A stretch of DNA of 64,000 nucleotides from Flavobacteriaceae bacterium (GTDB taxonomy: Bacteria; Bacteroidota; Bacteroidia; Flavobacteriales; Flavobacteriaceae), in assembly GCA_002719315.1 (NCBI GenBank), contig PBHD01000005.1, positions 155,133 through 219,132 of the forward strand. Direction: 5' to 3'. Below are positions 38,263-64,000 of this stretch, piece by piece (the first letter of the stretch is position 1; the number at the start of each line of letters is the position of its first letter). Below the pieces are notes generated by a model, which worked only from the letters and a program-made list of their open reading frames with translations, was not told the origin of the DNA and searched no databases. The position numbers and the translations under genes were made by a program.

Positions 38263-38264
38263 TT

Positions 38265-40521: not shown

Positions 40522-40534
40522 TTAAAGTAGAAAT

Positions 40535-43039: not shown

Positions 43040-43042
43040 ATT

Positions 43043-44284: not shown

Positions 44285-44340
44285 ATTCTATTTTATATAT
44301 TAAATATAAGACCTAATATAGTTTAAAATTAATTTTAAAA

Positions 44341-45015: not shown

Positions 45016-45053
45016 AAGACAAATTTTATAATTTATTATAAAAAATTAAGGTT

Positions 45054-46220: not shown

Positions 46221-46930
46221 AAGAAAAAAGAATTAAATCAATTGCCATTATTATTGCAAGGGGAGGCAGTAAAAGAATTTTTAGAAAAAACATAAAATTA
46301 TTTTTAGGAAAACCAATAATCTCTTATTCAATATCTGCTGCTTTGAATTCTAAAATTTTTGACGAAATTATGGTGTCTACTGACGATAACGAAATTGCGC
46401 AAATATCAAAAGAAAATGGCGCAAAAATTCCATTCATGCGTTCTTCAAAAAATTCAACTGATCTATCTACAACTGCAGATGTTATTACAGAGGTTTTAGA
46501 CTCATATAAAAAAATAGGGATTACACCCATTTATGCTTGTTGTATTTATCCTACAGCTCCATTTTTAGATCAATCAATTTTAATAAAAGCATATAAGCTT
46601 ATTGTAAAAAATAAATCTAAATCAGTGATTCCAGTTGTAAAATATAGTTACCCAATTTTAAGGTCATTAATTATTAAAAAGAACAAATTAGAAATGAAAT
46701 GGCCAAAAAATATGGATGTGCGAAGTCAAGATTTTCCAGAATTTTACCATGACGCAGGCCAATTCTACTTTTTGAACGTAAAAAACTTTTTAAAGGACCC
46801 TGTTCTTTTTTCAAATTTTACAATTCCAATAAAGATTCCCTCAATTTTAGTCCAAGATATAGATAACATAGAGGATTGGGATATAGCGGAGTTTAAATAT
46901 AAATTTTTAAAGGAAAAAAATATTATCTAA
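46217..46930 (+). CDS. pseF: Nonulosonic acid cytidylyltransferase (PseF/NeuA family)
   Basis: IIIARGGSKRIFRKNIKLFLGKPIISYSI, VSTDD, IYPTAPF and RSQDFPEFYHDAGQFYF. The 237-aa length fits PseF-type enzymes. Confidence 0.7.
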   Translation: MKEKRIKSIAIIIARGGSKRIFRKNIKLFLGKPIISYSISAALNSKIFDEIMVSTDDNEIAQISKENGAKIPFMRSSKNSTDLSTTADVITEVLDSYKKIGITPIYACCIYPTAPFLDQSILIKAYKLIVKNKSKSVIPVVKYSYPILRSLIIKKNKLEMKWPKNMDVRSQDFPEFYHDAGQFYFLNVKNFLKDPVLFSNFTIPIKIPSILVQDIDNIEDWDIAEFKYKFLKEKNII

Positions 46931-46965
46931 ATTTTTTTTAAGTTTTTTTTAATTTTTATTATAAT

Positions 46966-46987
46966 TTAAGTACTTTTGTTACTTGAT
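46966..46987 (+). promoter_or_regulatory. Island motif copy 2 (contains a -7 box)
   Basis: TTAAGTACTTTTGTTACTTGAT, with TACTTTTG at 46971-46978. It lies in the 78-nt gap after the cytidylyltransferase gene. Confidence 0.6.
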
Positions 46988-47008
46988 TTTATATATCAAA
47001 TAAAACTT

Positions 47009-47890
47009 TTGAAAAAATTAATCATTATTGGAGCTTCAGGACTTTTAGGTTCAAATTGGGCAAAGTATGCACTTGGTAAGTATAATGTTTATTTGGGTTT
47101 AAATAAACGTAAAATTTCAATTGATGGAACTAAATCAATTTTTTTGAATATTTTTAATGAAGATGAACTAAAAAAAAAATTAGAGAAAATTAATCCAAGT
47201 ATAGTTATAAATTGTTCAGGATTAACGAACGTTGAATTATGTGAAAAAAACGAGAAAGAAGCTTATAAATTAAATTCATTAATCCCTGGTGTTTTATCAA
47301 AAATATGTAATGATTTGAACTATAAATTCATACAAATATCTACTGATCATATTTTTTGTGGAACAAAAAAATATAGAAAAGAAACGGAATTCCCTGAACC
47401 AAAAAATATTTATGCAAAGTCTAAGTTATTAGGAGAACAAAAAGCCCTTGAAAACAACAAAAACAGTTTAGTTATTAGAACAAATTTTTATGGAAAAGGA
47501 CCTGCCTATAGACCATCATTTTCTGATTTTATTGTAAATAATTTAATTAACGGTCATCAAATTAATCTGTTTAACGATATGTTTTATACACCAATTCACA
47601 TAAATGAACTTTTAAATAATGTCCATAGTTTATTAAATATTAATTCATCTGGAATTTTTAATGTTGTTTCAGATCATAGAATATCTAAATATGATTTTGG
47701 TATATTAATAGCCAAAAAACTTAATCTTGATGTTGATCTTATAAAAATGGCAAAACTCAGCGAAAGAAAAGATCTAACCGTTCGACCTTTTGATTTAAGT
47801 TTATCAAATGAAAAACTAAAGAAACATTTAAATTTAAGTCTTATTTCATTGCACAATGATATAGAGTTATTAAATAAATTGAAAATATGA
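47009..47890 (+). CDS. RmlD-type sugar-nucleotide 4-reductase (dTDP-4-dehydrorhamnose reductase family)
   Basis: Segments IIIGASGLLGS, STDHIFCG, YAKSKLLGE and IRTNFYG. Start moved from the TTG at 46976, which lies inside the motif, to the in-frame TTG at 47009 (no ATG is available). Confidence 0.7.
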   Translation: MKKLIIIGASGLLGSNWAKYALGKYNVYLGLNKRKISIDGTKSIFLNIFNEDELKKKLEKINPSIVINCSGLTNVELCEKNEKEAYKLNSLIPGVLSKICNDLNYKFIQISTDHIFCGTKKYRKETEFPEPKNIYAKSKLLGEQKALENNKNSLVIRTNFYGKGPAYRPSFSDFIVNNLINGHQINLFNDMFYTPIHINELLNNVHSLLNINSSGIFNVVSDHRISKYDFGILIAKKLNLDVDLIKMAKLSERKDLTVRPFDLSLSNEKLKKHLNLSLISLHNDIELLNKLKI

Positions 47891-49056
47891 TACCTTACGG
47901 TAAACAAAATATTAATCAAAAAGATATTGACTCTGTCATAGAAGTTATGAGTTCAGATTTTCTTACGCAAGGGCCAATAACACCTTTGTTTGAGGAAAAG
48001 TTACAAAAATACTGTGAAGTAAAGTATGCTGTTGCTACTATTAATGCTACTAGTGCTCTTCACCTTTCTTGTTTAGCAATAGGAATTAAAAAGGGAGATT
48101 TTGTTTGGACTTCGCCTATTACTTTTGTTGCATCTGCGAATTGCATCAAATATTGCGGTGGAAATTTAGATTTAGTAGATATTGATCCTTTAACATATAA
48201 TATTTCTATTGAATCCTTGAAATCAAAATTAGTTGAGGCAAAAACAAAGAATAGATTACCTAAAGCAATTATTACTGTTCATTTATCAGGACAATCTTGT
48301 GATATGGAAAAAATTAAAAATTTATCAAAAGAATATGGTTTTAAAATAATTGAAGATGCATCGCATGCTTTAGGAGCAAAATATAAAGACAAACCTGTAG
48401 GTTCCTGTTTCTATAGTGATATCGTTGTTTTTAGTTTTCATCCTGTAAAAATGATAACTACATGTGAAGGTGGAGCTTGTCTTACTAATGACAAAAATTT
48501 ATATGAAAGAATTTATAATTTAAGAAGCCATGGAATAGTTAGAAATAAAAAAGATATGGTAAATAAAAATTCTGGATCATGGTATTATGAACAAAAATTT
48601 TTAGGGTTTAATTATAGATTAAATGATCTTCAATCAGCATTGGGAATAAATCAAATTAAGAGATTAGATTTGTTTATAAAAAAAAGATATGAAATTGTTA
48701 ATTATTATAATCAATTATTTGAAAATAATTCTAATATTATAAGACCTTTTCAATTAGAGGATAGTTTTTCTTCATTTCATTTATACATAATTAAGGTATC
48801 AAATAAAGAAGATTTTAACAGAGACAAAATTTTTGAAAGCTTAAGAAATAATGGATATTATGTTAATGTTCACTATATTCCAATTTATAGACATCCATTT
48901 TATTCCAATAATTTTAATTTAAAAGATTATCCCAATAGTGAAGAATACTATAGTAAAGCCATTAGCTTGCCTATATACCCATATTTAAATAAAAAACATA
49001 TTAGAAACGTTGTTGATATAATTAATAATAAAGTTAATTATCAAAATCTTTTTTAA
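47887..49056 (+). CDS. pseC: UDP-4-amino-4,6-dideoxy-N-acetyl-beta-L-altrosamine transaminase-like (PseC family)
   Basis: N-terminus IPYGKQNINQKDIDSVIEVMSSDFLTQGP, then DASHALGA and the Lys segment FSFHPVKMITTCEGG. ATGA overlap with the reductase gene. Confidence 0.75.
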   Translation: MIPYGKQNINQKDIDSVIEVMSSDFLTQGPITPLFEEKLQKYCEVKYAVATINATSALHLSCLAIGIKKGDFVWTSPITFVASANCIKYCGGNLDLVDIDPLTYNISIESLKSKLVEAKTKNRLPKAIITVHLSGQSCDMEKIKNLSKEYGFKIIEDASHALGAKYKDKPVGSCFYSDIVVFSFHPVKMITTCEGGACLTNDKNLYERIYNLRSHGIVRNKKDMVNKNSGSWYYEQKFLGFNYRLNDLQSALGINQIKRLDLFIKKRYEIVNYYNQLFENNSNIIRPFQLEDSFSSFHLYIIKVSNKEDFNRDKIFESLRNNGYYVNVHYIPIYRHPFYSNNFNLKDYPNSEEYYSKAISLPIYPYLNKKHIRNVVDIINNKVNYQNLF

Positions 49057-49282: not shown

Positions 49283-50866
49283 ATGAAAACATATCAGAAA
49301 CATTTATCTAGTGTTGGGGAGATAAAGGAGATAAAAGATTTAAACAGAAAACAGGTTAATAGAACTTCATCTATATTCCCAGTTTTTCACTCTAAAAAAA
49401 TTAGTTCTAGAGTTCTTTTTATGAATTACTGGCTAATAAAAAGAGGAATTAAAGAAATGGGTTTAACAATTACTTTGAGATATTTTGATGGAAAAATATT
49501 GATTAGGCAAAATAAAATTTTAACATCTGCAAAAGCTTTTGAAATTAAGTTAATTGATTTATTAAAAAAAGTTGAAATCGAAAATAATGATTTTGTTGGA
49601 TCTTTAGAAACTGAGTTTTTTTCAACAGTAGATTTGGTTTTTCCTTATCCAGCTGTAGTTATTAATTATTATAATGATTATGGATCAACTTTTGTTCATA
49701 CAGCTGGAAGAATTTATAATAATTTTGAAGATTTAATTGAAAATGATTCAATTTTAGTTAAAGAAAGTGGATTTGATATTTATTCTGAAGATCGATTTAA
49801 TCCATTTTTTTCTTTTACCAATGGATATAGTAATGAAAAATCAAATATTATTGAGGTTGAGCTTCTAAATGAGAATGGTTTAATTATTAAAGAGAAAATA
49901 GAATTAGGTAGTTTAAAACCATATGAAACTGTAGTTTTTTATTTTAAAGATTATTTTCCTTTAAAAAGACTTTTGAAAAATTCTATTGGGACCGTTAAAG
50001 TCAAGCATAATTTAAAAGGGTTTTTTCCCAGATTTATTTGCGGAAATATTTGTAAAGTAACGGGTCTTGTGTCTGTAACTCATAGCTATTATGATAACTC
50101 TAATCAATTAGGTTTAAATTCTTATATGAAAAATCATAATCCAAAAAAATTAATGGATTATTCAGTTTTTATTCCATTATTTGTTGAGAATAACTTTTAT
50201 ACAGAAATGAAAATTTATCCTATTAATTCTCCTTCAAATTATTCTCTAAATTTAACTTTTTACTCTATGAAGGGTAAATCTTTAGGGAAAAAAGAAAAAA
50301 TTATTTCTATTGATGAAAATCATAACACATACAATGAATTAAAATTTTTAGATATAGTTAATAAATTAGGAATAGATGCAAAAGATGTTAAAGGTGTTTT
50401 AATTGAACAAAATTTTAAAAATAAAAACAAGATACCTTCTAGGCTAAAATATGGTTTAAATATTGGTGAAAAAAAATCAAAATATGATTTGCCAACTAAT
50501 ATATGTTTTAACTCAGAACCTGTAAATCAATATGAAATAAATAAGAAAGGAACATTTAAATGGTTTCCATTAATTAATTCTTCAAAAAGCATAGCCGTTA
50601 TACATAATAGTTGTTTTATTAAAGATTATAGTAAAAGTGCTAATATTGAAATAAGTATTTATAAAGTTGATTCGGAAGATGTAATTATAAAAAACATTAA
50701 ACTTGAAGCATTTCAACAATATAGATTAATTATAGATTTTGAGATATCAACTTTTCTAAATAACAAATCAGGGTGGGTTATTCTAAAATCTGAAAATCCA
50801 TTTATTAGAGCATGGTATTTTGATTTTAATGAAAGTGGAATTATTGGTGGGGATCATTCCTTTTGA
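49283..50866 (+). CDS. Hypothetical protein, 527 aa, no recognisable family or TM segments
   Basis: Long uninterrupted ORF in operon context. No motif known to me. Confidence 0.6.
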   Translation: MKTYQKHLSSVGEIKEIKDLNRKQVNRTSSIFPVFHSKKISSRVLFMNYWLIKRGIKEMGLTITLRYFDGKILIRQNKILTSAKAFEIKLIDLLKKVEIENNDFVGSLETEFFSTVDLVFPYPAVVINYYNDYGSTFVHTAGRIYNNFEDLIENDSILVKESGFDIYSEDRFNPFFSFTNGYSNEKSNIIEVELLNENGLIIKEKIELGSLKPYETVVFYFKDYFPLKRLLKNSIGTVKVKHNLKGFFPRFICGNICKVTGLVSVTHSYYDNSNQLGLNSYMKNHNPKKLMDYSVFIPLFVENNFYTEMKIYPINSPSNYSLNLTFYSMKGKSLGKKEKIISIDENHNTYNELKFLDIVNKLGIDAKDVKGVLIEQNFKNKNKIPSRLKYGLNIGEKKSKYDLPTNICFNSEPVNQYEINKKGTFKWFPLINSSKSIAVIHNSCFIKDYSKSANIEISIYKVDSEDVIIKNIKLEAFQQYRLIIDFEISTFLNNKSGWVILKSENPFIRAWYFDFNESGIIGGDHSF

Positions 50867-50902: not shown

Positions 50903-51865
50903 ATGATAAATATTGTGAAAGGTAAAGGCTTATTTATATTTAGTGATCCAGGAGGAGCAAAACCAGTTTTATCATTTATTTACAATAAAAAAATTAAAAA
51001 TTATAAAATTATTTCTGATAGAAAATATAATTTTTTTAATGATTTTAATTTAAAAGTTGAAAATTATAATATTAAATCAAATAACGAGCTTTTTAAAGCT
51101 TATAAACCTGATTATGTTTTTACTGGGACATCCTATACATCTAAGATTGAGTTAAAATTTATTTCAAAAGCAAAGGATTTAAACATCAAGACATATACTT
51201 TTATTGATCATTATTCGAGATATAAAGATAGATTTAAGTTTAATGGTGTGTATATATTTCCAGATGTTATTTTTTTAACTGATAATAAGGCAAAAAAAAT
51301 TGCTTACAAAGCAGGATTAAATCTATATTCCAAAATATTCATTTCAGGTAATTTTTTTCATGAATATTTAAATAAATGGAAACCAAAAATTTCAAAAAAA
51401 ATTTTTTTTTCTAGTTTTAAAATAAATAATAATCAAAAAATAATTTTATTTGCACCTGATCCTTTATCAAATATAGATGGAAAGAAAGTTTTATTATTTG
51501 ATGAGACAGATGTTTGGATTGATTTATCTAAAGCAATTAATAAGATTTCTTTGACATCTAATCCACTATTAATCATAAAGTTTCATCCTAATCAAAACAT
51601 TAATTATTTAAAAAGAATAGTTAAAGAGTTTCCAGTAAAAAAATATTTATTTGTTAATTCTACAAATACCAATGAATTAATTTACTATTCAAATATTGTA
51701 GTTGGAATTTATTCTAGCTTACTTATAGAAGCTGAAAAACTAAAAAAAAATATTTTAAGACATATACCAAATCCAAAAATTGACGATTATTTAGATCATT
51801 TAAAAAAAGGAAAAATCAGTAATACTGTCAATGAGCTAGCTAATAATTTAAAATTATTTATATGA
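50903..51865 (+). CDS. Hypothetical protein, possible GT-B-like transferase carrying an HP motif
   Basis: The order IILFAPDP ... IIKFHPNQ ... IVVGIYSSLLIEA resembles the C-terminal half of TagF/KpsS/sialyltransferase-type enzymes. The assignment is weak. Confidence 0.55.
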   Translation: MINIVKGKGLFIFSDPGGAKPVLSFIYNKKIKNYKIISDRKYNFFNDFNLKVENYNIKSNNELFKAYKPDYVFTGTSYTSKIELKFISKAKDLNIKTYTFIDHYSRYKDRFKFNGVYIFPDVIFLTDNKAKKIAYKAGLNLYSKIFISGNFFHEYLNKWKPKISKKIFFSSFKINNNQKIILFAPDPLSNIDGKKVLLFDETDVWIDLSKAINKISLTSNPLLIIKFHPNQNINYLKRIVKEFPVKKYLFVNSTNTNELIYYSNIVVGIYSSLLIEAEKLKKNILRHIPNPKIDDYLDHLKKGKISNTVNELANNLKLFI

Positions 51866-51895: not shown

Positions 51896-53557
51896 ATGAT
51901 TAAACTATACATTAAGCTTTATTCTATTTGTTATGATTCATTAATTAGTTACAAAAAGGATATTAATAATCCTAAAAATTGGAATGAAAAAAGAAAAATT
52001 TACAACAAAAAAATTAATGAAAAAGTTTTTAAGTTCATAAAAGATAAAAAATTAAAACAAGAAAAGATATCTGATCAATTTATATTGGACATGATAAATT
52101 ACTATTTGTATCTGAACTTTAAAATTAGAAAAAGTTATTTGTTCAATAATAAATTTTTAATTTTTCCAAAATATACATTTATTATCATTTGTTTAATTAA
52201 TAATTTTTACATAGGTTTTAAAATTGTTTTAAGAAGGTTTCTAAATGTAGTTTTCACTAAAATTAATTTTAAGGAAATAGTAATAAATAAAAAAGCTGTT
52301 TTAGTAATAGGGTTTCCAAAAGATTCGTTTTCTAATAGTCTTCTAAAAACAAATTATAATTCATCTTTAATTGAATATTTGTTAAATAATAATATAATTG
52401 ATTTTAAAACAGATATTTTAAGTTATGACGAGTATACATTAAAGAAAATGGATTATGATAAGTTTTCAAAGAAAAAATTATACGGTAAACCTAAATATGA
52501 AAATATATTTAAAGCAAAAACTTATCAAAGACATATCTTAAAAAGAAAAAAAAGTATAAATTTTTCAAAAGGATTAATTAAGAAGTTTTATTTAAATTTT
52601 ATAAAACTTATAAAGCATTTTGGGTTTAAAGCAATTTCATTTTATTTATTTTATGTAAGTCAAAAATTAAGAGCTTATGAACTAAAGGAACTTTTTAATT
52701 TGATTAAAAGAAGATATGATTCTTTTAAGATTATTTTTATAAGTTCTTATGATTTAGGCTATTTAAAATATTCTAATAATAATTATTTAATTCATCATTA
52801 CAACTATAGCAGAAATAATATTTATCCATTTTCAAAAAAAACATTATTCAATGAGTTAAAAAAAACTCAAGATCTATCATTAAATAATGTTCTTGAGGAG
52901 GTTGAGTTAGACAACTTTACTTTATCATATCCAAACTCATTGGGGTTTTCTTACCATGCTTATTTTTATTCATTTTTAAGAAATATTATTAATAAAAATT
53001 TTGATATAAGTCTTCATAATAAAGTAAAAATTCCTCCAAAAAAGCAATTAAATTCTAATTTAAGTTATGCTTTTATTCAAAAAATTAAACTAGAGACTAA
53101 AACAAAAAATGCAATTGTTTTTGATGTTTTATCTGAAACAAGACTTGAAAATATATCAAGGAGAGGAATATATGGTATGTATTCTCAATTAAATGATTTT
53201 GCAGAGAATTACTTAAGTGAACTTCTTTCAATTTTAAATAGTAATGAAATAAATATTTTTTATAAAGGAAAATATCAATATAACGACGAAAGAAAAACAA
53301 TTATTGATAATGTGGCTTCAAGATTAAATATAAAATTTTATAAAATAAATGAATATTCTAAAATTAATTTATCTAATGGGGTGAAGTTTAATTACGCTAT
53401 AAGTCAGCCATTTACTTCCACTTTTTTTAACTTAGCTCCAATTACAAAACAGTCAATTTACTATGTGCCAAATGATTTTATAAAACTTTTTCCAAATGGA
53501 ATAAATGGAGTATGTTATGGTAGTAGAGAATTGTTAGAAAAAATTAAAATTTTATAA
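51896..53557 (+). CDS. Polysaccharide-locus protein carrying the PFTS motif, function unknown
   Basis: The C-terminal segment AISQPFTSTFFNL contains PFTS. I recall a family of unknown function from nonulosonic-acid loci that is named after this motif. Confidence 0.6.
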   Translation: MIKLYIKLYSICYDSLISYKKDINNPKNWNEKRKIYNKKINEKVFKFIKDKKLKQEKISDQFILDMINYYLYLNFKIRKSYLFNNKFLIFPKYTFIIICLINNFYIGFKIVLRRFLNVVFTKINFKEIVINKKAVLVIGFPKDSFSNSLLKTNYNSSLIEYLLNNNIIDFKTDILSYDEYTLKKMDYDKFSKKKLYGKPKYENIFKAKTYQRHILKRKKSINFSKGLIKKFYLNFIKLIKHFGFKAISFYLFYVSQKLRAYELKELFNLIKRRYDSFKIIFISSYDLGYLKYSNNNYLIHHYNYSRNNIYPFSKKTLFNELKKTQDLSLNNVLEEVELDNFTLSYPNSLGFSYHAYFYSFLRNIINKNFDISLHNKVKIPPKKQLNSNLSYAFIQKIKLETKTKNAIVFDVLSETRLENISRRGIYGMYSQLNDFAENYLSELLSILNSNEINIFYKGKYQYNDERKTIIDNVASRLNIKFYKINEYSKINLSNGVKFNYAISQPFTSTFFNLAPITKQSIYYVPNDFIKLFPNGINGVCYGSRELLEKIKIL

Positions 53558-53652: not shown

Positions 53653-54705
53653 ATGAACATAAATGATTTAAAAAAAACTTTTTCTAATAATTCAAGGTTG
53701 AACAAAAAATTTGAATTTAAGGATATAGATAGTAAACATAAGAATATTATTAAAAATTCAAAAACTAATTTAGAAAATTTGAATTCTTCAAATTTTAGAA
53801 ATTGGGGCAGTCAAAATGATATGGGGTTAAAATATTCTATGACGTTTTTATCAAAAAATTTTTTAGAATTAAATAAAATCAGGCTTTTAAACAATTTTTT
53901 TAATTTTTTTAAAAAAAGACTGAATCATATTTTTGAGTATTCTTCAATGTTAGATGATATAGAAATATTAAAATTATTAGATGGTGAAAGTTTAATTAAA
54001 GAGAATCCTCAAAACAAAACTCCTGGATCAATTAATTATCCGCTTGTAAATGGTTACTCAGTTTCAATTAGATGGCTAAGGTATTTATATATACTAAATC
54101 AAATTATTAGATTTAATTTGATAAATAAAAATGATATTTGGCTAGATATAGGATCTTATTATGGCGGATTGCAAGGTTTAGTAAAAAAATATTTTCCTAA
54201 AACTAAAATAATTATGTTGGATTTTAGCCATCAATTACTTAGGAGTTTTATTTATTTAAAAAAATTATATCCAAATGCTAATCATATTTTTCCCAATCAA
54301 TCACAAAAAATCAAGGATATAAAAAATATTCCTGACGGATCATTTGTTTATGTTGAGGTAGAGGATACAAATACTTTAAATAATTTTGATATTAAAATAG
54401 TTACAAACTTCTTTAGTTTGGGAGAAATGAAAAAAAAATCATTTGATAATTATTTAAATTCTGAATTTATGAAAAATGCTAAAACTATATATTTTGCCAA
54501 TAGATTTAATAGTAGTCCATTTTTTGAAAAAACATATGATGACTCAATAAATATATTTGATTATAAGCTCAATAAAGAAATTTTTTATTTTGATATTTTT
54601 CCAATGGGTCATTACCAAATAACAAATAGAAAAATTTTAAACAGGACTTTTTTTAGAAACATTTCTAGTCAGTATTTTGAAATAATTTGGAAAGAAAAAA
54701 TTTAG
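53653..54705 (+). CDS. Putative sugar O-methyltransferase (class I SAM fold)
   Basis: Motif I-like WLDIGSYYGGLQGLV, then IIMLDFS. Confidence 0.55.
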   Translation: MNINDLKKTFSNNSRLNKKFEFKDIDSKHKNIIKNSKTNLENLNSSNFRNWGSQNDMGLKYSMTFLSKNFLELNKIRLLNNFFNFFKKRLNHIFEYSSMLDDIEILKLLDGESLIKENPQNKTPGSINYPLVNGYSVSIRWLRYLYILNQIIRFNLINKNDIWLDIGSYYGGLQGLVKKYFPKTKIIMLDFSHQLLRSFIYLKKLYPNANHIFPNQSQKIKDIKNIPDGSFVYVEVEDTNTLNNFDIKIVTNFFSLGEMKKKSFDNYLNSEFMKNAKTIYFANRFNSSPFFEKTYDDSINIFDYKLNKEIFYFDIFPMGHYQITNRKILNRTFFRNISSQYFEIIWKEKI

Positions 54706-54927
54706 TTTTAAAAGAAAATAAAAAAATGAATTCTATTAACTGAAATATTAATTAATTGTTTAAAGATTATATAAATAAATATATGAGTTGTTTTTTGGAA
54801 ATTAAAATTATTGTTAATTAAGAATTCCTTCATTAAATAAATGAAAGATCAATATAATCTTAATAGAATTTAATAAATTGAAAATATATATTTTAGAAAA
54901 AAGTTTTAACAATTTAATCATTAGTTT

Positions 54928-55794
54928 ATGAAAATAGAAATAGGTTATGGTAAAATAGAAAAAGTAAAAATCGGAGATGATTTACCATTAGCTTTTGTTG
55001 GTGGACCATGTGCTATTGAAAGTAGAGACCATGCTTTTTTTATGGCAGACAAGATTAATAAAATATGTAATAAACTAAAAATGCCATGGATTTATAAGTC
55101 ATGCTATGATAAAGATTGCCGTTCATCACCAAAAAGTTTTCATGGAGTAGGAATTGATGAAGGTTTGAAGATATTGTCCGAGATAAGAGATTCATTTGGA
55201 ATACCTGTCGTTTCAGATTTTTCAGATTCATCATGGGCCCAATCTACAGGAGAAGTATGTGATATGGTTCAAGTTCCAGCTTATTTGTGTAGGCAAACCT
55301 CAATTTTAAGAGCTGCAGCTGAAACAAGTCGTCCAATATTATTAAAAAAAGGACAGTTTATGAGTCCATGGAATATGAAAAATTCATGTAGAAAGATTGA
55401 ATCTTTTGGAAATAATAAAATTATTTTAGCAGAAAGAGGAACCTTTTTTGGGTATAATATGCTTGTAAATGACATGAAATCCTTTCCAATAATGGCTGAA
55501 ACTGGATATCCAGTTTGTTATGATGCATCTCATTCTATTCAATTGCCAACATCTATGGGTAATATTTCAGGCGGACAAAGAGAATATATTCCATATTTAG
55601 TTAGGGCTGCAGTTGCTAACGGAATAAATTTATTATTTATTGAGACTCATGACAACCCTAATGAAGCATTATCTGACTCTAATACAGTCTTGGATATAAA
55701 ATATCTTAAAAATGTATTATATCAATCTAAAGTAATTCATGAAACTAGATTAAGATTATTAAATGAATTAGGGTCTGATAATATTATTCATTGA
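54928..55794 (+). CDS. kdsA: KDO8P-synthase family enzyme (metal-dependent class) with a divergent substrate-selectivity motif
   Basis: Collinear with KdsA: GGPCAIES (Cys as in the metal-dependent class), QVPAYLCRQT, DASHSIQ, LFIETHDNP. The canonical KANRS motif reads KDCRS (55111-55125). Confidence 0.8.
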   Translation: MKIEIGYGKIEKVKIGDDLPLAFVGGPCAIESRDHAFFMADKINKICNKLKMPWIYKSCYDKDCRSSPKSFHGVGIDEGLKILSEIRDSFGIPVVSDFSDSSWAQSTGEVCDMVQVPAYLCRQTSILRAAAETSRPILLKKGQFMSPWNMKNSCRKIESFGNNKIILAERGTFFGYNMLVNDMKSFPIMAETGYPVCYDASHSIQLPTSMGNISGGQREYIPYLVRAAVANGINLLFIETHDNPNEALSDSNTVLDIKYLKNVLYQSKVIHETRLRLLNELGSDNIIH

Positions 55795-55808
55795 TAAAAA
55801 ATTAAAAT

Positions 55809-56198
55809 ATGAAAGTAAAAGATGTAATGCTTAAAAAAGGAAAATTTCCAATATTAACACCTAAAACTTTATTAAAAGAAGCTTTAGTTGAAATGGTTAA
55901 GACAAAGCTTGGTTTAGTTTGTATAACCGATTTAAATAACAAGTTAATAGGCATATTTACTGATGGGGATATTAGAAGAATGTTATTAAAAAATCAAAAG
56001 CCATTTTCAGCTTTTTTTGTAGATGATATAATTGATCATGCAAATTTAGATCCTACAACTTGTAAAGATTCTGATTCTTTGAAAGAATCATTAAAATTGA
56101 TGGAAGAAAAGGGAATTTGGGATTTGCCAGTATTGGATGAGGAAAATAATTTAATAGGACTTTTTCATTTGCATCAAGCAATATCAAAGTTGATATAG
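55809..56198 (+). CDS. Stand-alone CBS-pair protein (resembles the C-terminal half of KpsF/KdsD)
   Basis: 129 aa with two CBS repeats (LVCITDLNNKLIGIFTDGDIRR and WDLPVLDEENNLIGLFHLHQ). No SIS domain is present in this ORF or next to it. Confidence 0.75.
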   Translation: MKVKDVMLKKGKFPILTPKTLLKEALVEMVKTKLGLVCITDLNNKLIGIFTDGDIRRMLLKNQKPFSAFFVDDIIDHANLDPTTCKDSDSLKESLKLMEEKGIWDLPVLDEENNLIGLFHLHQAISKLI

Positions 56199-56215
56199 TT
56201 ATTAGATTAATTTAA

Positions 56216-57049
56216 ATGAAAAAACTTAATAAAAATTATTTAGGGTGGAATTCAAAAGATCATTTAATTTCCTTCAATTTTTGGAATGATTTATCTAATT
56301 ATGAGTTTAATTTTAGGTGGGGAAGTTTTAGGGAAAATCAAATTATTTCGGAAGTTTTAAAAAAAGGAGATTCATTGTTTGAAGTTGGATGTGCAACTGG
56401 AACTACAGTTAGGTGGCTAAAAAATACTGGAATTTTAAGTAAAATTAAATATTTAGGAGTTGACATTAGTGATACAGCAATTAGTAAAGCAAATTTCTTA
56501 CACCCTAAAGTTAATTTTAAAAAGATTGGTTTAGGACCTTTAAAAGAGTATTATAATAAATTTGATTATGTTTTCAGTAGAGATACAATTATGCATCAAG
56601 AAAAACCTTTTGAATTTTTATGGGAACTTATTAAATGTGCTAATAAAGGACTAATAATAAGATTAAGAACTAGAGATTCAGGAATCACAAATTATAATTT
56701 AGAAAGTAATTGTCAACTCCATTATGATAATTATTGGATGCCATATATAGTGATTAATATAAGTGAAATAATAGATTTTTTAAAAAGTTTAAAAATTATT
56801 TATAGTATAGAGATTAATCGTTCCTATGAAGTTTTAGGAGGAAGTACAAATAGATATTTACCGAAAGATTTATATTTTAAATCAGCAGGAGGGGCTGAAA
56901 CTTCAATTTTTTTAAAAATTGATAAAACAAAAACCTCGAATGATATTGAAATTATTAAAACAGATCTTGTTGAAGGAAGAAAACTTATAAGATTTTCTAT
57001 TTTTAAAAGATTTATTATAGCTGTTCTAAAAAAATTAAAACTATTATAA
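56216..57049 (+). CDS. Class I SAM-dependent methyltransferase
   Basis: Motif I LFEVGCATGTT. Confidence 0.65.
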   Translation: MKKLNKNYLGWNSKDHLISFNFWNDLSNYEFNFRWGSFRENQIISEVLKKGDSLFEVGCATGTTVRWLKNTGILSKIKYLGVDISDTAISKANFLHPKVNFKKIGLGPLKEYYNKFDYVFSRDTIMHQEKPFEFLWELIKCANKGLIIRLRTRDSGITNYNLESNCQLHYDNYWMPYIVINISEIIDFLKSLKIIYSIEINRSYEVLGGSTNRYLPKDLYFKSAGGAETSIFLKIDKTKTSNDIEIIKTDLVEGRKLIRFSIFKRFIIAVLKKLKLL

Positions 57050-57823
57050 ATGAAAAGAAAAGATTTAAAAAAAGCATTAAGGTTAAGAAAAAAAATTTTT
57101 GGAGCATGGGTTTCTTATTCAGAACCTTCAATTGCTGAAACTTTTGCTAAAGCTAATTTTGATTTTTTAGTAATAGATATGGAACATTCTACAATAACAT
57201 TACCTCAGTCAAAAAATATTATATCCGTTTGCCAATCTATGGGAGTCTCATGTTTGCCAAGGCCTGTTTCTCATTCTAATGATTATTTTAAACCATTATT
57301 AGAATTTGGACCTGACGGTCTTTTTGTTCAAATGGTTAATAATCCTTCTGAGTTGAATAAAATTATTAATTATGTAAAATATCCTCCAATTGGTTGCAGG
57401 AGTTATGGAATTAATAGAGCTCAAGAATATGGTTTTAAAATTGAAGAATATTTTTCTTTATGGAATGATGAATCTTCTTTAATAATTCAAATTGAATCAA
57501 TTGAAGGGGTTAAGAATATTGAATCTCTACTAGATAATGATCAAGTAGATGCCGTTATGATAGGGCCTTATGACATTTCTGGTTCACTTGGTGTCCCGGG
57601 AGAAATTAATCATCCAAAAGTAATTGAAGCTTCAAAAAAAGTAATTTCCGCTTGTGAAAAGTATGGAAAGAGTTGTGGAACTCAAATTTCTGATCCCAAT
57701 CAAGAAAATATTAAATCTTTATTTGATATGGGTTACACCTACTTGATTCTTGGATCTGATTTATTTGTTTTGTGGAGATGGGCTGAAAAGATGAGTAAAC
57801 TTATTAATAGAATCAAAGATTAA
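57050..57823 (+). CDS. HpcH/HpaI-family class II (pyruvate-dependent) aldolase
   Basis: Segments FDFLVIDMEHS, IQIESIEGVKNIESL and IGPYDISGSLG. Confidence 0.8.
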   Translation: MKRKDLKKALRLRKKIFGAWVSYSEPSIAETFAKANFDFLVIDMEHSTITLPQSKNIISVCQSMGVSCLPRPVSHSNDYFKPLLEFGPDGLFVQMVNNPSELNKIINYVKYPPIGCRSYGINRAQEYGFKIEEYFSLWNDESSLIIQIESIEGVKNIESLLDNDQVDAVMIGPYDISGSLGVPGEINHPKVIEASKKVISACEKYGKSCGTQISDPNQENIKSLFDMGYTYLILGSDLFVLWRWAEKMSKLINRIKD

Positions 57824-57827
57824 AAAA

Positions 57828-58604
57828 ATGTATTTAAATAAATTATTTAATTTAAAAGGAAAAGTTGCTGCTGTTATAGGAGGGGGAGGATATTTATGTA
57901 GTAAAATGTCAATGGGCCTGGCTAAATCAGGATGTAAATTGGCGATTTTAGATCTAAGATTAAAAAAAGCAAAAAAAGTTTGTAATGAAATTATATTTGA
58001 GGGATATAATGAGACAATTGCATTATCAATAGATGTATCAAATAAAGAAAGTCATGAAAGTGCTTTAAATTATATCGTTAAAAAATTTGGGAGAGTTGAT
58101 ATATTAATAAATGGTGCAGGAATTAATAGCTCATCTCCATTTTTGGAAATTGATAGTAATGAATGGTATTCTATAATCGATTCTCAGTTAACAGGAACTT
58201 TTTATGGATGTCAAGTATTTGGAAAGCATATGTTGAAAAATAATTCTGGGTCGATAATTAATGTTTCTTCAGCATCTGCTGGACCACCTCTTTCAAAAGC
58301 ATTTACATATTCAGTTTCAAAGGCAGGTATAAAAAACTTAACCCAAAATTTGGGTAGAGAATGGGGAGAAAAAGGTGTTAGGGTTAATGCTATTAGACCT
58401 GGATTTTTCCCAACTGAATGGAATAAAAAAAACTTTATTACAAAGGATAGAGAAAAAAAAATATTAGGACATACTCCAATGAATAGATATGGTAAACCTG
58501 ATGAATTAATAGGTGCAATTTTATGGTTATCTTCTGAAGCTTCCAGTTTTGTTACAGGTGCTGAAATTACTGTGGATGGGGGTTATTCTTGCATGACAAT
58601 TTAA
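57828..58604 (+). CDS. Classical SDR oxidoreductase
   Basis: Segments AVIGGGGYLCS, NGAG and YSVSKAGIKNL. Confidence 0.8.
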   Translation: MYLNKLFNLKGKVAAVIGGGGYLCSKMSMGLAKSGCKLAILDLRLKKAKKVCNEIIFEGYNETIALSIDVSNKESHESALNYIVKKFGRVDILINGAGINSSSPFLEIDSNEWYSIIDSQLTGTFYGCQVFGKHMLKNNSGSIINVSSASAGPPLSKAFTYSVSKAGIKNLTQNLGREWGEKGVRVNAIRPGFFPTEWNKKNFITKDREKKILGHTPMNRYGKPDELIGAILWLSSEASSFVTGAEITVDGGYSCMTI

Positions 58605-58610
58605 ATAAAA

Positions 58611-59372
58611 ATGAAAAATAAAAAGACAGTTATAATTACTGGTGGAAATAGAGGAATAGGTTTGGGAATAACAAAAGTTTTCCTTAGAAATAATTATAAT
58701 GTATTTGTTGGTTCTAGAACAGGATTTTCAAAAGAAAGTCATAACTTAAACATAAAATCTGTAAATCATTTCAAAATAGATGTTAGGAATTTTAATGATC
58801 ACGTCAAACTTGCAAAAAAAGCAATTGAATTAACAGGTAGACTAGACTCTTATATTAATAATGCAGGATATTCAAAATGGGTTTCTATAAATAATATTGA
58901 AGAAAAATTTTTAAATAATATTTTGGAAACTAATTTAAAAGGTGTTTTTTGGGGTTGTAAAGCTGCAGCAAAATTTTTAAATTCTGAAAATCCCTCAATT
59001 ATAAATGTCTCAAGTTTAGCAGGTAAAAGAGGGAGTTTAAATAATTCTGCTTATGTAGCTTCAAAATTTGGTGTTAATGGACTTACTCAGTCTTTAGCTA
59101 AAGAATTAGGTGAAAAAAATATAAGAGTAAATGCAGTTTGCCCAGTACTCATTGCAACTAAAGGATTAATTAAAGCTTTAGAGGAAGAAGAAGCTCCAGG
59201 AAAAAAAGGAGCAATTAAGTTTATTGAAGAGTTTTCAAGAATTAATTCTCCATTAAATAGAATGCCAACATCTGAAGAAGTTGGAGAAATGTGTTTATAT
59301 CTTGCTAGTGATAAGGCTAAAGCAATAACCGGTCAATGTATTAATGTAGATTGTGGAGTTTTACCTCAATAA
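58611..59372 (+). CDS. Classical SDR oxidoreductase (FabG-like)
   Basis: Segments ITGGNRGIGLG, NNAG and YVASKFGVNGL. Confidence 0.8.
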   Translation: MKNKKTVIITGGNRGIGLGITKVFLRNNYNVFVGSRTGFSKESHNLNIKSVNHFKIDVRNFNDHVKLAKKAIELTGRLDSYINNAGYSKWVSINNIEEKFLNNILETNLKGVFWGCKAAAKFLNSENPSIINVSSLAGKRGSLNNSAYVASKFGVNGLTQSLAKELGEKNIRVNAVCPVLIATKGLIKALEEEEAPGKKGAIKFIEEFSRINSPLNRMPTSEEVGEMCLYLASDKAKAITGQCINVDCGVLPQ

Positions 59373-59373
59373 A

Positions 59374-60141
59374 ATGAATTTAAAAGTAATAATTCCTGCT
59401 CACTTAGCCTCTTTGAGATTAAAAGAAAAAATTTTAATTGACATTCACGGTTTACCCATGATTGAACATGTAAGAAGAAGAGTTTTATTATCAAAAGAAG
59501 TTAGTGAAGTAATTGTTGCAACTTGCGATTTTGAAATAAAAAAAACTGTTGAGGGTTTTGGAGGAAAAGTAGTAATGACTTCCAATGATCATCAGAATGG
59601 TACTAGTAGAGTTGCTGAGGCAGTAAGTAAAATAAAATGTTCACATGTATTAATAGTTCAAGGAGATGAACCTTTGATTCATCCAGAACATATTAATCTA
59701 ATGGTTAAATCAATGCTAAATAATAATAAAATAAAAATTTGGAACGGAATAACTTCAATTAATTCTATTGATGATTTAAATAATCGTGACCTAGTAAAAT
59801 GTTTTGTCAATAGTAAAAATCAAATTGGAATGTGTTTCAGAAATAACCCAGGTTTTTCTGGCTTAAAAAAATTGAATAAGTCAATATTTAAAATACAGGG
59901 TTTAATAGCATTTAAAAAAAATTTTCTAATGAATTTAGTAAATAAACCCCCATCACCATATGAATTAGCTGAGTCAATTGAACAAATGAGATCTATTGAA
60001 AATGGAAATCAAATTCAAGCAGTTATGTTAAATAAGTCTTTTTCTTCTATAAATAATTTAGAAGAATTAAAAGAAGTTCGCAATATTTTAAAAAAAAGTA
60101 AATTAGAAATAGAAATTTTAAATACTATTAAGCATAATTAA
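59374..60141 (+). CDS. kdsB: CMP-Kdo synthetase family cytidylyltransferase (KdsB-like, divergent N-terminal loop)
   Basis: Segments VIIPAHLASLRLKEKILIDIHGLPMIEHV, GTSRVAEA, VQGDEPL and ESIEQMR. Start moved to the ATG at 59374. Confidence 0.75.
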   Translation: MNLKVIIPAHLASLRLKEKILIDIHGLPMIEHVRRRVLLSKEVSEVIVATCDFEIKKTVEGFGGKVVMTSNDHQNGTSRVAEAVSKIKCSHVLIVQGDEPLIHPEHINLMVKSMLNNNKIKIWNGITSINSIDDLNNRDLVKCFVNSKNQIGMCFRNNPGFSGLKKLNKSIFKIQGLIAFKKNFLMNLVNKPPSPYELAESIEQMRSIENGNQIQAVMLNKSFSSINNLEELKEVRNILKKSKLEIEILNTIKHN

Positions 60142-62115: not shown

Positions 62116-63111
62116 ATGAGAAGAATTGTTTTCACTTTAAAGAATTTTATTAAGGATTTAAATCAAGATTTTTTAAGATATTTTACTGGGAAATTAAAAA
62201 AAAATGAAAAACAAAATTTATCTGAAACTCAAATTTACCCTAAAGGTAAAAATATAATTAAGGTTTTGAACATTGAAGCTAAGCAAAGATTAGACAAAAT
62301 AGATTTGTCAGAAAACTCAAATATAGCCTCAATTGGAACTTGTTTTGCTGAGGAGCTTTCAATTCATTTAAAAAACACATCTAGTTATTTAAATTACATT
62401 AATTATGAAAAAAATGTTTTTAATTTTTCTGCAAATTGGGGTCGTGTTTACACAGTTAAAAATTTGAAGCAGATTATCGATTATTCACTTACTGAAAATT
62501 ACCCCTTATTAGTAGAGCAATACAAAAAAAAATTTTTTGATCCATTAAGAGAGTACAGTGTTGGTTATTTTAATTCTAAAGATGAAGCAATAAATAGTAT
62601 TAAAAGACATAGAATAAATAGTAGAGAGGTATTTAATAAAACTAATTTAATTGTTATTACTTTAGGTCAGAATGAGTATTGGTATGATCTCAAGAATAAT
62701 GTCACATGGGGTACAACACCGGCAATAATTTTTAGAAAAGAAAAGAATAGATTTGAGGCAAGAGAGTATTCATTTAAGGAAAATGTTGAAGATTTAAAAT
62801 ATATAGTCTTAAAACTAAGAAAGTTTAATCCCAAAATAAATATTATTTTCACAGTAAGCCCTGTGGCTTCATATGCAACTTTTATAAGTCAAAATATAGT
62901 TTCACAATCATTTGCCGGGAAATGTACTCTTCGTGCCGCTATTCATGAAATCTTACCATTAGATGACAAAATTTTTTATTACCCTTCTTTTGAATTTGTA
63001 TTATCAGATAATCCAAGTTCATTTATTTATGATAATAGGCATGTAAAAAGATTTAAGGTTTCTCAAATTTTGTCTTCTTTGAATAAGTCTTTACTAAAAA
63101 ATAAATTTTAA
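62116..63111 (+). CDS. GSCFA-family protein (function unknown)
   Basis: IASIGTCFAEE matches the G-S/T-C-F-A motif that names the family. Confidence 0.6.
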   Translation: MRRIVFTLKNFIKDLNQDFLRYFTGKLKKNEKQNLSETQIYPKGKNIIKVLNIEAKQRLDKIDLSENSNIASIGTCFAEELSIHLKNTSSYLNYINYEKNVFNFSANWGRVYTVKNLKQIIDYSLTENYPLLVEQYKKKFFDPLREYSVGYFNSKDEAINSIKRHRINSREVFNKTNLIVITLGQNEYWYDLKNNVTWGTTPAIIFRKEKNRFEAREYSFKENVEDLKYIVLKLRKFNPKINIIFTVSPVASYATFISQNIVSQSFAGKCTLRAAIHEILPLDDKIFYYPSFEFVLSDNPSSFIYDNRHVKRFKVSQILSSLNKSLLKNKF

Positions 63112-63122
63112 TTTATATCTAG

Positions 63123-64000
63123 GTGATAATTAAGAAGGAAAATTTAAAAATAAGTGAAAGTGAAATTTTTTTGCAAATTGGCAAAAAAAGAAAATTTTAT
63201 GAAAGTAAGGTAAACAACTTTCTAATTAATTTAAATATTTCTAATTCTAGTAAAGTATGGTGGGCCTTTAATTTTACTGCAAGGAACCCAGTAACTTCAA
63301 AACTTTTCGAAAAATTAATTGTTGTATTAGCCATAATTGATATAATTGAGAGTGATCAATCAAAACAAATAGATTTTTATAAAATTTCAGTTGGTCAAAG
63401 ATCAATTATTAATCAATATTTTGATTATAAACCAAAATATTATATAAATTCATTTTATGATTTTTTTTTAAAAAATATATTTTTTGAATATATAAAGATA
63501 ATTTATTTACTAATAGAAATATTTTTAAGATTTTTTAAATTAAAAAATAAAACAATAACAACTAATATATTGTTATTCAGCTACATAGATAATATTAAAA
63601 GAAATGACAGAGATTCTTATTTTGGAAATTTATTAAATAAAATAACTGAAGATTATCCTGAAAAAAAAGTTTCATATTTATTTTATTTATATAGGCCATT
63701 TATTAAAATGAAAAAGTGTTTAAAGAATGAAAAATCAAATTATAGTTTTATTTTTAATCACTTACATTTAATTGACTATTTATGGGCTTTTATTCAAGTT
63801 ATAAATGGTTATTTTTTTTCAATTAAAAATTCAAATATTAGTTTAAATAATAAGAATATATTTTTCAAAGAGATTATAAGAGAAACCATGAAAAAAGAAT
63901 TATCCAGAGGTTATATAAATAATTTACTTGTTTACAGAGCTTCAAAAAGGATAAGAAATATTCCTAAATTAGAAACTTTAATTTACCCTTTTGAAAATAA
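63123..64000 (+). CDS. Hypothetical surface-carbohydrate-locus protein, N-terminal part (open to the window end; GTG start)
   Basis: My own translation stays open from the GTG at 63123 to 64000 (VIIKKENLKISESEIFLQIGKKRKFYESK...WWAFNFTARNP...LIYPFEN). It is missing from the ORF track because no stop is reached. Confidence 0.5.
   Translation, partial: MIIKKENLKISESEIFLQIGKKRKFYESKVNNFLINLNISNSSKVWWAFNFTARNPVTSKLFEKLIVVLAIIDIIESDQSKQIDFYKISVGQRSIINQYFDYKPKYYINSFYDFFLKNIFFEYIKIIYLLIEIFLRFFKLKNKTITTNILLFSYIDNIKRNDRDSYFGNLLNKITEDYPEKKVSYLFYLYRPFIKMKKCLKNEKSNYSFIFNHLHLIDYLWAFIQVINGYFFSIKNSNISLNNKNIFFKEIIRETMKKELSRGYINNLLVYRASKRIRNIPKLETLIYPFEN

Follow-up and report, generated by a model that had tools for sequence, protein, structure and literature searches.

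We analysed a 64-kb stretch of DNA (the window, to which all coordinates refer unless a locus is named) from contig PBHD01000005.1 of a Flavobacteriaceae genome, in which seven tightly packed genes at 54928-60141 combine paralogues of KdsA and KdsB, two enzymes of the pathway for Kdo (3-deoxy-D-manno-octulosonate), with a CBS-domain protein, a methyltransferase, a pyruvate aldolase and two short-chain dehydrogenases/reductases (SDRs). We hold with moderate confidence that this region is one copy of a mobile cassette for a tailored 3-deoxy-2-ulosonic acid of the Kdo family, which would be activated with cytidine monophosphate (CMP) and destined for a strain-variable surface glycan, be it an O-chain, a capsule or a protein O-glycan. 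That the product is something other than Kdo itself is suggested by sequence and genomic context. A further reading, which we put forward tentatively and at somewhat less than an even chance, is that the product is a chemically undescribed sugar, either a non-manno 3-deoxy-octulosonic isomer, which a re-tooled KdsA would build from an acceptor other than arabinose-5-phosphate and the aldolase and SDR pair would invert, or an 11-carbon diacid from the addition of pyruvate to oxidised Kdo; either product would be O-methylated, CMP-activated and displayed on the surface; in that reading the CBS protein would be a new regulatory subunit of an enzyme of the DAHP/KDO8P-synthase family.

Architecture and distribution of the cassette

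All seven open reading frames (ORFs) lie on the plus strand. The first encodes a paralogue of 3-deoxy-D-manno-octulosonate 8-phosphate (KDO8P) synthase (54928-55794, 288 aa; hereafter cassette KdsA), which is of the metal-dependent type and has an altered acceptor site (KDCRS). It is followed by a stand-alone CBS-pair protein (55809-56198, 129 aa; two Pfam CBS matches), a class I S-adenosylmethionine-dependent methyltransferase in what proved to be a variable tailoring slot (56216-57049, 277 aa; Pfam Methyltransf_31/12/11), a class II pyruvate aldolase of the HpcH/HpaI family (57050-57823, 257 aa; Pfam HpcH_HpaI), SDR1, which is similar to sugar-acid dehydrogenases (57828-58604, 258 aa; predicted to prefer nicotinamide adenine dinucleotide, NAD), SDR2, which is similar to aldose dehydrogenases and FabG (58611-59372, 253 aa; predicted to prefer the phosphorylated cofactor, NADP), and a paralogue of CMP-Kdo synthetase (59374-60141, 255 aa counted from its ATG; Pfam CTP_transf_3; hereafter cassette KdsB). 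The ATG at 59374 is the best start for this last gene and matches the public gene calls, an alternative GTG being present at 59353. The intergenic distances from the first gene to the last are 14, 17, 0, 4, 6 and 1 nt, and upstream lies an AT-rich spacer of 222 nt (54706-54927; 12.6% GC against 26.4% for the window), which is likely the promoter region of the operon. The initial annotation, which had described seven co-directional genes behind this gap, was accurate at every coordinate, with spacings of 0-17 nt, and its family assignments were borne out by Pfam and NCBIfam for all seven genes. It had also pointed to the lack of SIS and HAD domains; neither domain was found in the larger ORFs of the window that were scanned, four ORFs of 137-210 aa being unscanned or without a match. 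A sigma-70 consensus, which does not cover Bacteroidota promoters, gave no more sites in the spacer than in shuffled sequence, and neither an Rfam family nor a tRNA was matched. By exact sequence match the cassette proteins are MBK78276-MBK78282 of a marine Flavobacteriaceae metagenome-assembled genome (MAG), where they are encoded on a 311-kb contig; Tara Oceans and JGI metagenomes contain identical proteins.

More than 70 independent loci, drawn from many phyla, show the order KdsA-CBS-[tailoring slot]-HpcH-SDR1-SDR2-KdsB at protein identities of 45-90%. Aldolase homologues at 64-93% identity abound, and the contigs that encode three of them have this gene order, either with the methyltransferase or lacking it. 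When one genome per GTDB species was scanned with an aldolase profile, 80 loci were returned and annotated by BLAST against the window proteins; the full cassette was present in 46 of the 55 HpcH-seeded loci with an aldolase at least 38% identical. A KdsA-seeded scan of metagenome contigs likewise gave 80 loci, 32 of which extend at least 6 kb downstream of KdsA, and 20 of these 32 carried the full set. The neighbourhood KdsA-CBS-methyltransferase-HpcH-SDR-SDR-KdsB, whose conservation the initial annotation had put up for checking, thus recurs widely, though the methyltransferase slot varies. The cassette neighbours are always glycan genes, such as glycosyltransferases of families GT2 and GT4, Wzx-like or flippase-like genes, NeuB and dTDP-sugar genes. 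The recurrence of this order across phyla indicates a horizontally spread cassette and not a catabolic insert. HpcH enzymes and SDRs do also occur in the non-phosphorylative catabolism of deoxy sugars and uronates, and the names assigned by NCBI (4-hydroxy-2-oxovalerate aldolase, gluconate 5-dehydrogenase) would suit a module for sugar-acid degradation that landed by chance between kdsA and kdsB. But no dehydratase, lactonase, transporter or regulator is adjacent, the genes are spaced by 0-6 nt, and the order is identical in all those loci and always lies in a glycan island, so that we find such an accident scarcely credible; the aldolase and SDR genes belong to the unit, as had been claimed.

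The hosts, among them Bacteroidota, several proteobacterial classes and Nitrospirota, include Flavobacteriaceae, Cryomorphaceae, Cytophagaceae and Balneolaceae; other copies reside in Methylobacter, Thioglobus, Legionella, Enterobacterales, Polaromonas, Hyphomicrobiales, Syntrophales and Nitrospirota, and further in Prochlorococcus single-amplified genomes, in Pelagibacteraceae and in a cultured strain, Leptospira noguchii serovar Panama CZ214 (L043; L numbers denote individual loci). Within lineages the cassette is patchy, three Prochlorococcus loci being among the 80 returned, while cassette KdsA is 65-83% identical across phyla, and these two features together argue against a housekeeping role. 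The L. noguchii locus presumably lies within the serovar-determining rfb region. All Leptospira species carry ordinary lipid A/Kdo genes including kdsA and kdsB (PMC4758666), which makes the L. noguchii cassette an extra copy. The earlier view that the unit is not housekeeping Kdo supply is supported, the unit being conserved across phyla and located inside strain-variable glycan islands. Among 72,556 plasmids we found no cassette-type KdsA or HpcH (best identities 48% and 35%), an Enterobacterales copy had no DNA match in 5,426 E. coli genomes, and no cassette-type KdsA motif was found in the viral contigs of IMG/VR. The first kdsA/kdsB genes in a cyanophage, S-SCSM2R, were reported in 2025 (PMC12801897); since IMG/VR held no cassette KdsA motifs, these genes are probably of the ordinary type. 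The initial annotation knew of no described pathway with this gene set, and we too found no description of the cassette in the open-access literature searched, where absence is no proof.

The synthase and its CBS partner

Cassette KdsA matched Pfam DAHP_synth_1 with 230 bits (E 2.7e-68), cleared the NCBIfam KDO8P-synthase equivalogs NF003543 (333 bits, cut-off 242) and TIGR01362 (319 bits, cut-off 314), and is 42-49% identical to canonical KDO8P synthases. In a search of 1.84 billion representatives clustered at 50% identity its clade comprised one full-length representative (73%, 492 bits) and a few short fragments, and the next full-length sequence followed at 49% and 280 bits; the cluster members of the nearest canonical representatives bore only Nitrospira names. 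The clade accounts for at least 2,069 clusters at 90% identity in public data. Every cassette KdsA has KDCRS at the position of the canonical acceptor motif KANR[ST], which none of them retains. Among the 150 best representatives the motif could be read in 105, of which 99 have KANR[ST]; KDCRS was confined to the cassette representative and the fragments; all the PDB enzymes shown have KANR[ST]. Allison and colleagues reportedly called the KANRS motif 'absolutely conserved' in 2011. A comparison of 47 cassette with 95 canonical sequences (E. coli numbering from a motif alignment made here) revealed clade-specific, near-invariant substitutions that extend beyond the motif, namely C59, D63, C64, H72, S99, Y119 and S125 in place of E. 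coli S57, A61, N62, R70, H97, F117 and D123, respectively. On the other hand, 13 cassette KdsAs from at least 10 lineages invariably have C28, H202, E239 and D250 as metal ligands, together with the phosphoenolpyruvate (PEP) and phosphate residues K57, K62, K140/141, R170, R65/S66 and R122. We take the roles of these residues to be those of the A. aeolicus and E. coli structures, in which R122 comes from the neighbouring subunit, and we likewise assume that Asn62 and its neighbours line the site that binds the hydroxyls of arabinose-5-phosphate in KDO8P synthases. The pattern suggests that cassette KdsA still condenses PEP with a phosphorylated aldehyde whose sugar part is bound differently. 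With its KANRS site rebuilt, the enzyme probably binds the acceptor in another way than canonical enzymes bind arabinose-5-phosphate, and the acceptor may be a different aldose phosphate. Thus the 'divergent KdsA' of the initial annotation holds for the acceptor site and for the placement of the protein in a separate, discrete clade with a replaced motif, but not for the sequence at large, which at 42-49% identity still passes the equivalog cut-offs.

The CBS protein consists of a CBS pair only, and among NCBIfam models it best matches that of KpsF/KdsD, over the CBS part at the C-terminus (profile positions 155-268). A CBS-pair protein of 125-136 aa follows cassette KdsA in 130 of 135 loci, the exceptions being contig ends, and lies within 150 nt of it in 124 of those 130; an SIS domain was found in none of these 130 partners. 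It looks like the regulatory half of KpsF/KdsD, kept after the isomerase half was lost. One may speculate that it acts as a discrete regulatory subunit of the synthase.

KpsF and KpsU are dedicated second copies of Kdo enzymes in E. coli group 2 capsule loci, where they make plain CMP-Kdo. The cassette resembles them in being a set of second copies in a surface-polysaccharide locus and in its CBS protein, whose closest counterpart is the CBS half of KpsF; it differs in that KpsF keeps its SIS domain and that a KdsA paralogue, an aldolase and SDRs are lacking from kps loci. The marks of a group 2 capsule locus were not found in the window, where the CBS protein of 129 aa takes the place of a full-length SIS+CBS KpsF and no protein among those scanned matched Capsule_synth (KpsC/KpsS-type). 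These observations bear on the simplest alternative, namely that the cassette, similar to kpsF/kpsU, provides a capsule or O-chain with additional, ordinary Kdo, and that the aldolase, SDRs and methyltransferase are there for a different sugar of that glycan. Both paralogues reach NCBIfam cut-offs of KDO8P-synthase and KdsB models, and accessory Kdo gene copies are common in capsule loci and on plasmids, as this alternative would have it. We nevertheless consider it quite unlikely, given the replaced acceptor motif and the sharp separation of the clade, the loss of the SIS half of KpsF with retention of its CBS half, and the invariable position of HpcH-SDR1-SDR2 between CBS and KdsB across phyla. 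With the canonical KdsD-KdsA-KdsC-KdsB pathway the cassette shares the folds of synthase and cytidylyltransferase and the metal, PEP and phosphate residues; unlike that pathway it has no SIS isomerase or HAD phosphatase, carries KDCRS for KANRS and a stand-alone CBS protein, places an aldolase, two SDRs and methyltransferases between synthesis and activation, and is accessory and horizontally spread where the canonical pathway is universal.

Aldolase, dehydrogenases and the proposed pathway

The unit of the initial annotation is not a fixed set of seven genes: the cassette is modular, with a variable methyltransferase slot and an optional HpcH-SDR1-SDR2 unit. About 9 of the 32 KdsA-seeded loci with enough flank consist of KdsA-CBS-KdsB without aldolase or SDRs, and in some of these KdsB diverges further (31-44% identity); a single locus has KdsA-CBS-SDR2-KdsB, and in two KdsA-CBS leads directly to a partner protein of about 500 aa. 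In the KdsB tree several minimal cassettes nest among full ones (L133, L172 and L105 among them), and the window copy has minimal L138 as its sister (69% identity). This nesting marks HpcH-SDR1-SDR2 as an optional block placed between synthesis and activation. In about 19 other loci the tailoring slot between CBS and HpcH contains a 315-aa NanM-like putative sugar O-methyltransferase of TIGR04371 (22 ORFs, because frameshifts split some of them); the 277-aa class I methyltransferase, which has a weak match to a pseudaminic-acid-associated methylase, occupies it in the window and close relatives, an MBOAT plus AlgX-like O-acetylation pair in L014 and L016, and FkbM methyltransferases in L021 and L025, and in several loci it is empty. 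Two minimal cassettes, L162 (on a deep KdsB branch) and the nested L172, are accompanied by ATP-grasp and PIG-L deacetylase genes which resemble those next to the NeuB gene of the window; these variants might make an N-acylated sugar. In L092 (11300-17260), on a contig of 2.18 Mb, some 4.6 kb of short broken ORFs come after a cassette-type KdsA-CBS pair; they reflect either a decayed cassette or long-read assembly errors and have no bearing on the architecture.

The aldolase matched Pfam HpcH_HpaI with 100.6 bits (cut-off 25; E 9.9e-29) and stayed under the equivalog cut-offs for HpaI (142 bits, cut-off 369), GarL (131, cut-off 407) and RhmA (113, cut-off 441). Its H46, R71, E149 and D175 align with H45, R70, E149 and D175 of HpaI (4b5s, 2v5j), and this catalytic quartet was invariant in 11 homologues; judged by these residues, the cassette HpcH should be a working pyruvate aldolase. 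The HpcH/HpaI family makes or breaks 4-hydroxy-2-keto acids including 2-keto-3-deoxy sugar acids. Cassette HpcH has the catalytic His/Arg/Glu/Asp set in common with HpaI, GarL and RhmA/YfaU, but it is about 30% identical to the characterised enzymes and sits in a biosynthetic glycan operon instead of a catabolic one. SDR1 most resembles D-mannonate oxidoreductase, gluconate 5-dehydrogenase and KduD, enzymes of keto and hydroxy sugar acids, and has an Asp at the end of beta2 (VAILDLR) that is conserved in 51 homologues, which marks the NAD type. SDR2 is closest to glucose 1-dehydrogenase, an aldose 1-dehydrogenase, and to FabG; its TGGNRGIG and VG(A/S)R, with an Arg after beta2, are conserved in 47 homologues and mark the NADP type. 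These cofactor rules are those of the standard SDR classification, and the combination of an NAD-type SDR1 with an NADP-type SDR2 suggests a pair of which one oxidises and the other reduces.

Cassette KdsB matched Pfam CTP_transf_3 with 137 bits (E 8.2e-40); among the NCBIfam models it passed NF003952 (201 bits, cut-off 193) and fell below TIGR00466 (134, cut-off 155) and NF009905 (214, cut-off 255), and its top PDB matches were Coxiella KdsB (3tqd, 119 bits) and KpsU (1gq9, 117 bits). Its family keeps QGDEP and ESxEQxR, has a conserved PAHLAS in place of canonical PAR(F/Y)xS, the first Arg being changed to His, and has Ile or Leu instead of the His of canonical KHVGIYAYR. Both of these positions are in the nucleotide/sugar-binding region of KdsB.

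On this basis we propose the following pathway. Cassette KdsA, working with the CBS protein or regulated by it, would condense PEP with a phosphorylated aldose to an acid similar to octulosonate phosphate, a chemistry suggested by its family membership and the conserved metal, PEP and phosphate residues. The phosphate would be removed by a phosphatase encoded elsewhere, for example housekeeping KdsC. Where present, HpcH, SDR1 and SDR2 would then remodel the free acid before activation; this is the weakest step of the proposal. The SDR pair would invert one secondary alcohol in a redox-neutral manner, and the aldolase would re-set C4 by retro-aldol and aldol reactions to give a non-manno stereoisomer. 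NanM-like and class I methyltransferases would O-methylate the sugar, cassette KdsB, judged by its family, would form the CMP-sugar, and the partner protein of about 500-550 aa might, more speculatively, transfer it. Net epimerisation by an oxidise/reduce pair is known from IdnD/IdnO, which interconvert L-idonate, 5-ketogluconate and D-gluconate, and epimerisation through retro-aldol/aldol chemistry from the AraD-type epimerase, which has an aldolase fold and offers a precedent for the re-setting of C4, for which HpaI is known to have poor stereocontrol. Both are precedents by analogy for the two proposed steps and involve no orthology, although SDR1 does resemble gluconate 5-dehydrogenase. 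In Shewanella, the Fe-alcohol dehydrogenase KdnB and the aminotransferase KdnA act on free Kdo before CMP activation to give Kdo8N. There too a free acid of the Kdo type is tailored between synthase and cytidylyltransferase, with oxidation first, but the enzyme families are different, and the cassette has an aldolase and a reductase and no aminotransferase. We also considered HpcH and the SDRs as suppliers of the aldose phosphate for KdsA and rejected this as the main model; we could find no chemically reasonable route from central metabolites without carboxylate activation, and cassettes without the trio still keep KdsA-CBS-KdsB.

Several points weigh against the assignment of the cassette to a tailored, Kdo-family acid made in this way. 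The activities of all members and the structure of the product are predicted from sequence. Cassette KdsA passes the KDO8P-synthase equivalog cut-offs and may simply make KDO8P; no phosphatase is encoded within the cassette; in the full cassette HpcH is apparently redundant with KdsA; the role of the aldolase in epimerisation has precedent by analogy only; and a sister clade without KdsA implies that HpcH can itself form the ulosonate. This clade of the aldolase tree (L053, L057, L060 and L062) has the order HpcH-(HAD)-SDR1-SDR2-KdsB without KdsA-CBS, the HAD phosphatase being present in L053 and L062 and an FkbM methyltransferase beside HpcH in L057 and L060. L057 and L062, from an Omnitrophota MAG and a Coriobacteriaceae MAG, also have, just upstream of HpcH, a gene for an FSA-type aldolase of the fructose-6-phosphate-aldolase/transaldolase family (6272-6997 and 2781-3467 of the respective locus; TIGR00875, 145-152 bits, under the cut-off), directly adjacent in L062 and separated by the FkbM gene in L057; these aldolases are possibly a source of aldose phosphate independent of KdsD. 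In L053 (3249-11626, Deltaproteobacteria MAG) genes for a sugar-1-phosphate nucleotidyltransferase-like protein, a radical SAM protein and a PsrA-like Fe-alcohol dehydrogenase, the last from a phosphonate-pathway family (325 bits, under its cut-off), precede HpcH, HAD, SDR1, SDR2 and KdsB, in this order; this hints that the aldolase of its branch may use an aldehyde bearing a phosphonate or phosphate.

Such loci are the natural ground for an aldolase-centred alternative, in which HpcH is the real ulosonate synthase, joining pyruvate to a free or phosphorylated aldose, while KdsA-CBS provides a second, PEP-driven entry or makes a different acid, the SDRs tailor and KdsB activates. No pair other than HpcH and KdsB is shared by every variant that contains HpcH (in L060 and L065 there is little besides), HpcH with the FSA-type enzyme (L057, L062) and HAD (L053, L062) would together make a complete KdsA-free route, and the catalytic residues of the aldolase are invariant. 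Against this, two redundant C-C-forming enzymes would have been retained even in the streamlined genomes of SAR11 and Prochlorococcus, the minimal KdsA-CBS-KdsB cassettes do without HpcH, and aldolase equilibria disfavour synthesis at low substrate concentrations, and we regard this alternative as unlikely. The preferred model of remodelling reconciles both types of locus, the aldolase building the intermediate directly in the KdsA-less clade and PEP-driven KdsA supplying the flux in the full cassette.

The trio could also lengthen the sugar. Here SDR1 would oxidise a terminal or exocyclic alcohol, HpcH would add pyruvate and SDR2 would reduce the new 2-keto group, giving an 11-carbon diacid of the 3,9-dideoxy-ulosaric type whose Kdo-like end is CMP-activated. 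This gives the trio a coherent, redox-neutral order of NAD-type oxidant, C-C bond formation and NADP-type reductant; HpcH-family enzymes typically take aldehydes with a distal carboxylate, the KdsBs of full and minimal cassettes are interleaved in the tree as expected if only the exocyclic tail changes, and oxidation of free Kdo at C8 by Shewanella KdnB is a precedent. However, the nearest relatives of SDR1 oxidise secondary and not primary alcohols, no such sugar has been reported, and the KdsA-less sister clade needs HpcH as its primary synthase, which leaves chain extension very unlikely in our estimate. The mass of the CMP-sugar is expected to separate the models, at about 543 Da for an isomer of the Kdo type (plus 14 per methyl) and about 631 Da after chain extension.

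Of the acidic sugars that bacteria activate with CMP, only Kdo and the nonulosonic acids are, to our knowledge, well understood; their pathways serve as targets for drugs and vaccines. The nonulosonic-acid pathways (NeuB/PseI/LegI with NeuA/PseF) resemble the cassette in PEP condensation, CMP activation, NanM-like O-methyltransferases and location in strain-variable islands, but the cassette synthase is of the DAHP_synth_1/KdsA family and not NeuB, and its cytidylyltransferase is KdsB-like and not PseF/NeuA-like. The cassette would add a third, widely distributed route to such sugars, unusual in the rewriting of the usually conserved acceptor motif of KDO8P synthase, the dedicated CBS partner and the optional unit of an aldolase and two SDRs. 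A Kdo aldolase activity has long been known, and its EC number, 4.1.2.23, appears in a survey from 2007 that dealt with orphan enzyme activities. In Pelagibacter, Prochlorococcus and marine Flavobacteria the cassette sits in hypervariable glycan islands which are thought to govern recognition by phages and grazers; if our reading is true, an undescribed sugar is carried by abundant marine bacteria (SAR11, Prochlorococcus, Flavobacteriaceae) and also by Leptospira and Legionella. In islands of this kind, genes that are automatically annotated as 'KdsA/KdsB' are probably no sign of Kdo.

The surrounding glycan island

The cassette is the next operon within a surface-glycan island that spans from about 26.5 kb to the end of the window and contains a Wzy_C-type ligase-like protein, a UDP-sugar dehydrogenase, an ABC exporter, and RmlD-like and DegT genes. 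The system is not confined to 54928-60141, as the initial annotation had drawn it, but also takes in an upstream NanM-like gene and a downstream pair. The former encodes a putative sugar O-methyltransferase (53653-54705, plus strand, 350 aa; TIGR04371, 121.5 bits against a cut-off of 44), and its homologues lie directly upstream of cassette KdsA in L005, L025, L093, L095, L128, L137, L140, L145 and L153. Downstream, a GSCFA-domain protein (62116-63111, plus strand; Pfam GSCFA) is a frequent companion, which directly follows KdsB in L005-L007, L012, L019, L020, L093, L102, L106 and L112 and lies one or a few genes past the cassette in L032, L036, L131 and L138. It is followed by the N-terminal part of the partner protein (63123-64000, plus strand), which is cut by the window end; full-length, this protein has 550 aa in L002/L003, and versions of 480-505 aa stand after KdsB in most cassettes. 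It has a weak match to TIGR04326, 'surface carbohydrate biosynthesis protein' (E 2e-7), and is a candidate CMP-sugar transferase. A structure prediction for the partner (about 500 aa) from three alignable sequences had a mean predicted local distance difference test score (pLDDT) of 36, an unusable model. In the window, two minus-strand genes, deacetylase-like and formyltransferase-like, are interposed before the GSCFA/partner pair.

The island also holds a separate, complete-looking nonulosonic-acid block of the pseudaminic/legionaminic type (33989-49056). It comprises a NeuB-family synthase (33989-35020), an ATP-grasp protein (35005-35961), a PIG-L deacetylase (37549-38262), two DegT aminotransferases (39238-40521 and 47887-49056), a WbuY/WbuZ-like pair of GATase and HisF (41662-43039), a WbuX amidotransferase (43043-44284, 322 bits), a formyltransferase (44341-45015), a methyltransferase (45054-46220) and a PseF-like CMP synthetase (46217-46930, 285 bits). 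With this block beside the Kdo-like cassette, the island appears to encode two different CMP-activated acidic sugars.

Four large ORFs gave no match, namely 19708-22641 (977 aa) and 22752-25064 (770 aa), which were compared with NCBIfam only, and 49283-50866 (527 aa) and 51896-53557 (553 aa), compared with Pfam and NCBIfam. These latter two, situated between the cassette and the nonulosonic-acid block, may encode glycosyltransferases or polymerases that escaped recognition. The 320-aa product of 50903-51865 has a weak match (E 1e-11, far under the cut-off) to the BFO_1060 family of glycosyltransferases, which comes from Tannerella-type O-glycosylation loci. Upstream of the island are housekeeping genes (a TonB-dependent receptor, Na+/solute symporters, NupC and a TrpB-like enzyme) that fit the assignment to Flavobacteriaceae. 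At 1609-3691, unrelated to the cassette, an enolase-superfamily gene of the MR_MLE type is translationally coupled to a gene for a DUF1611 P-loop protein, a pairing typical of peptide/D-amino-acid epimerase systems.

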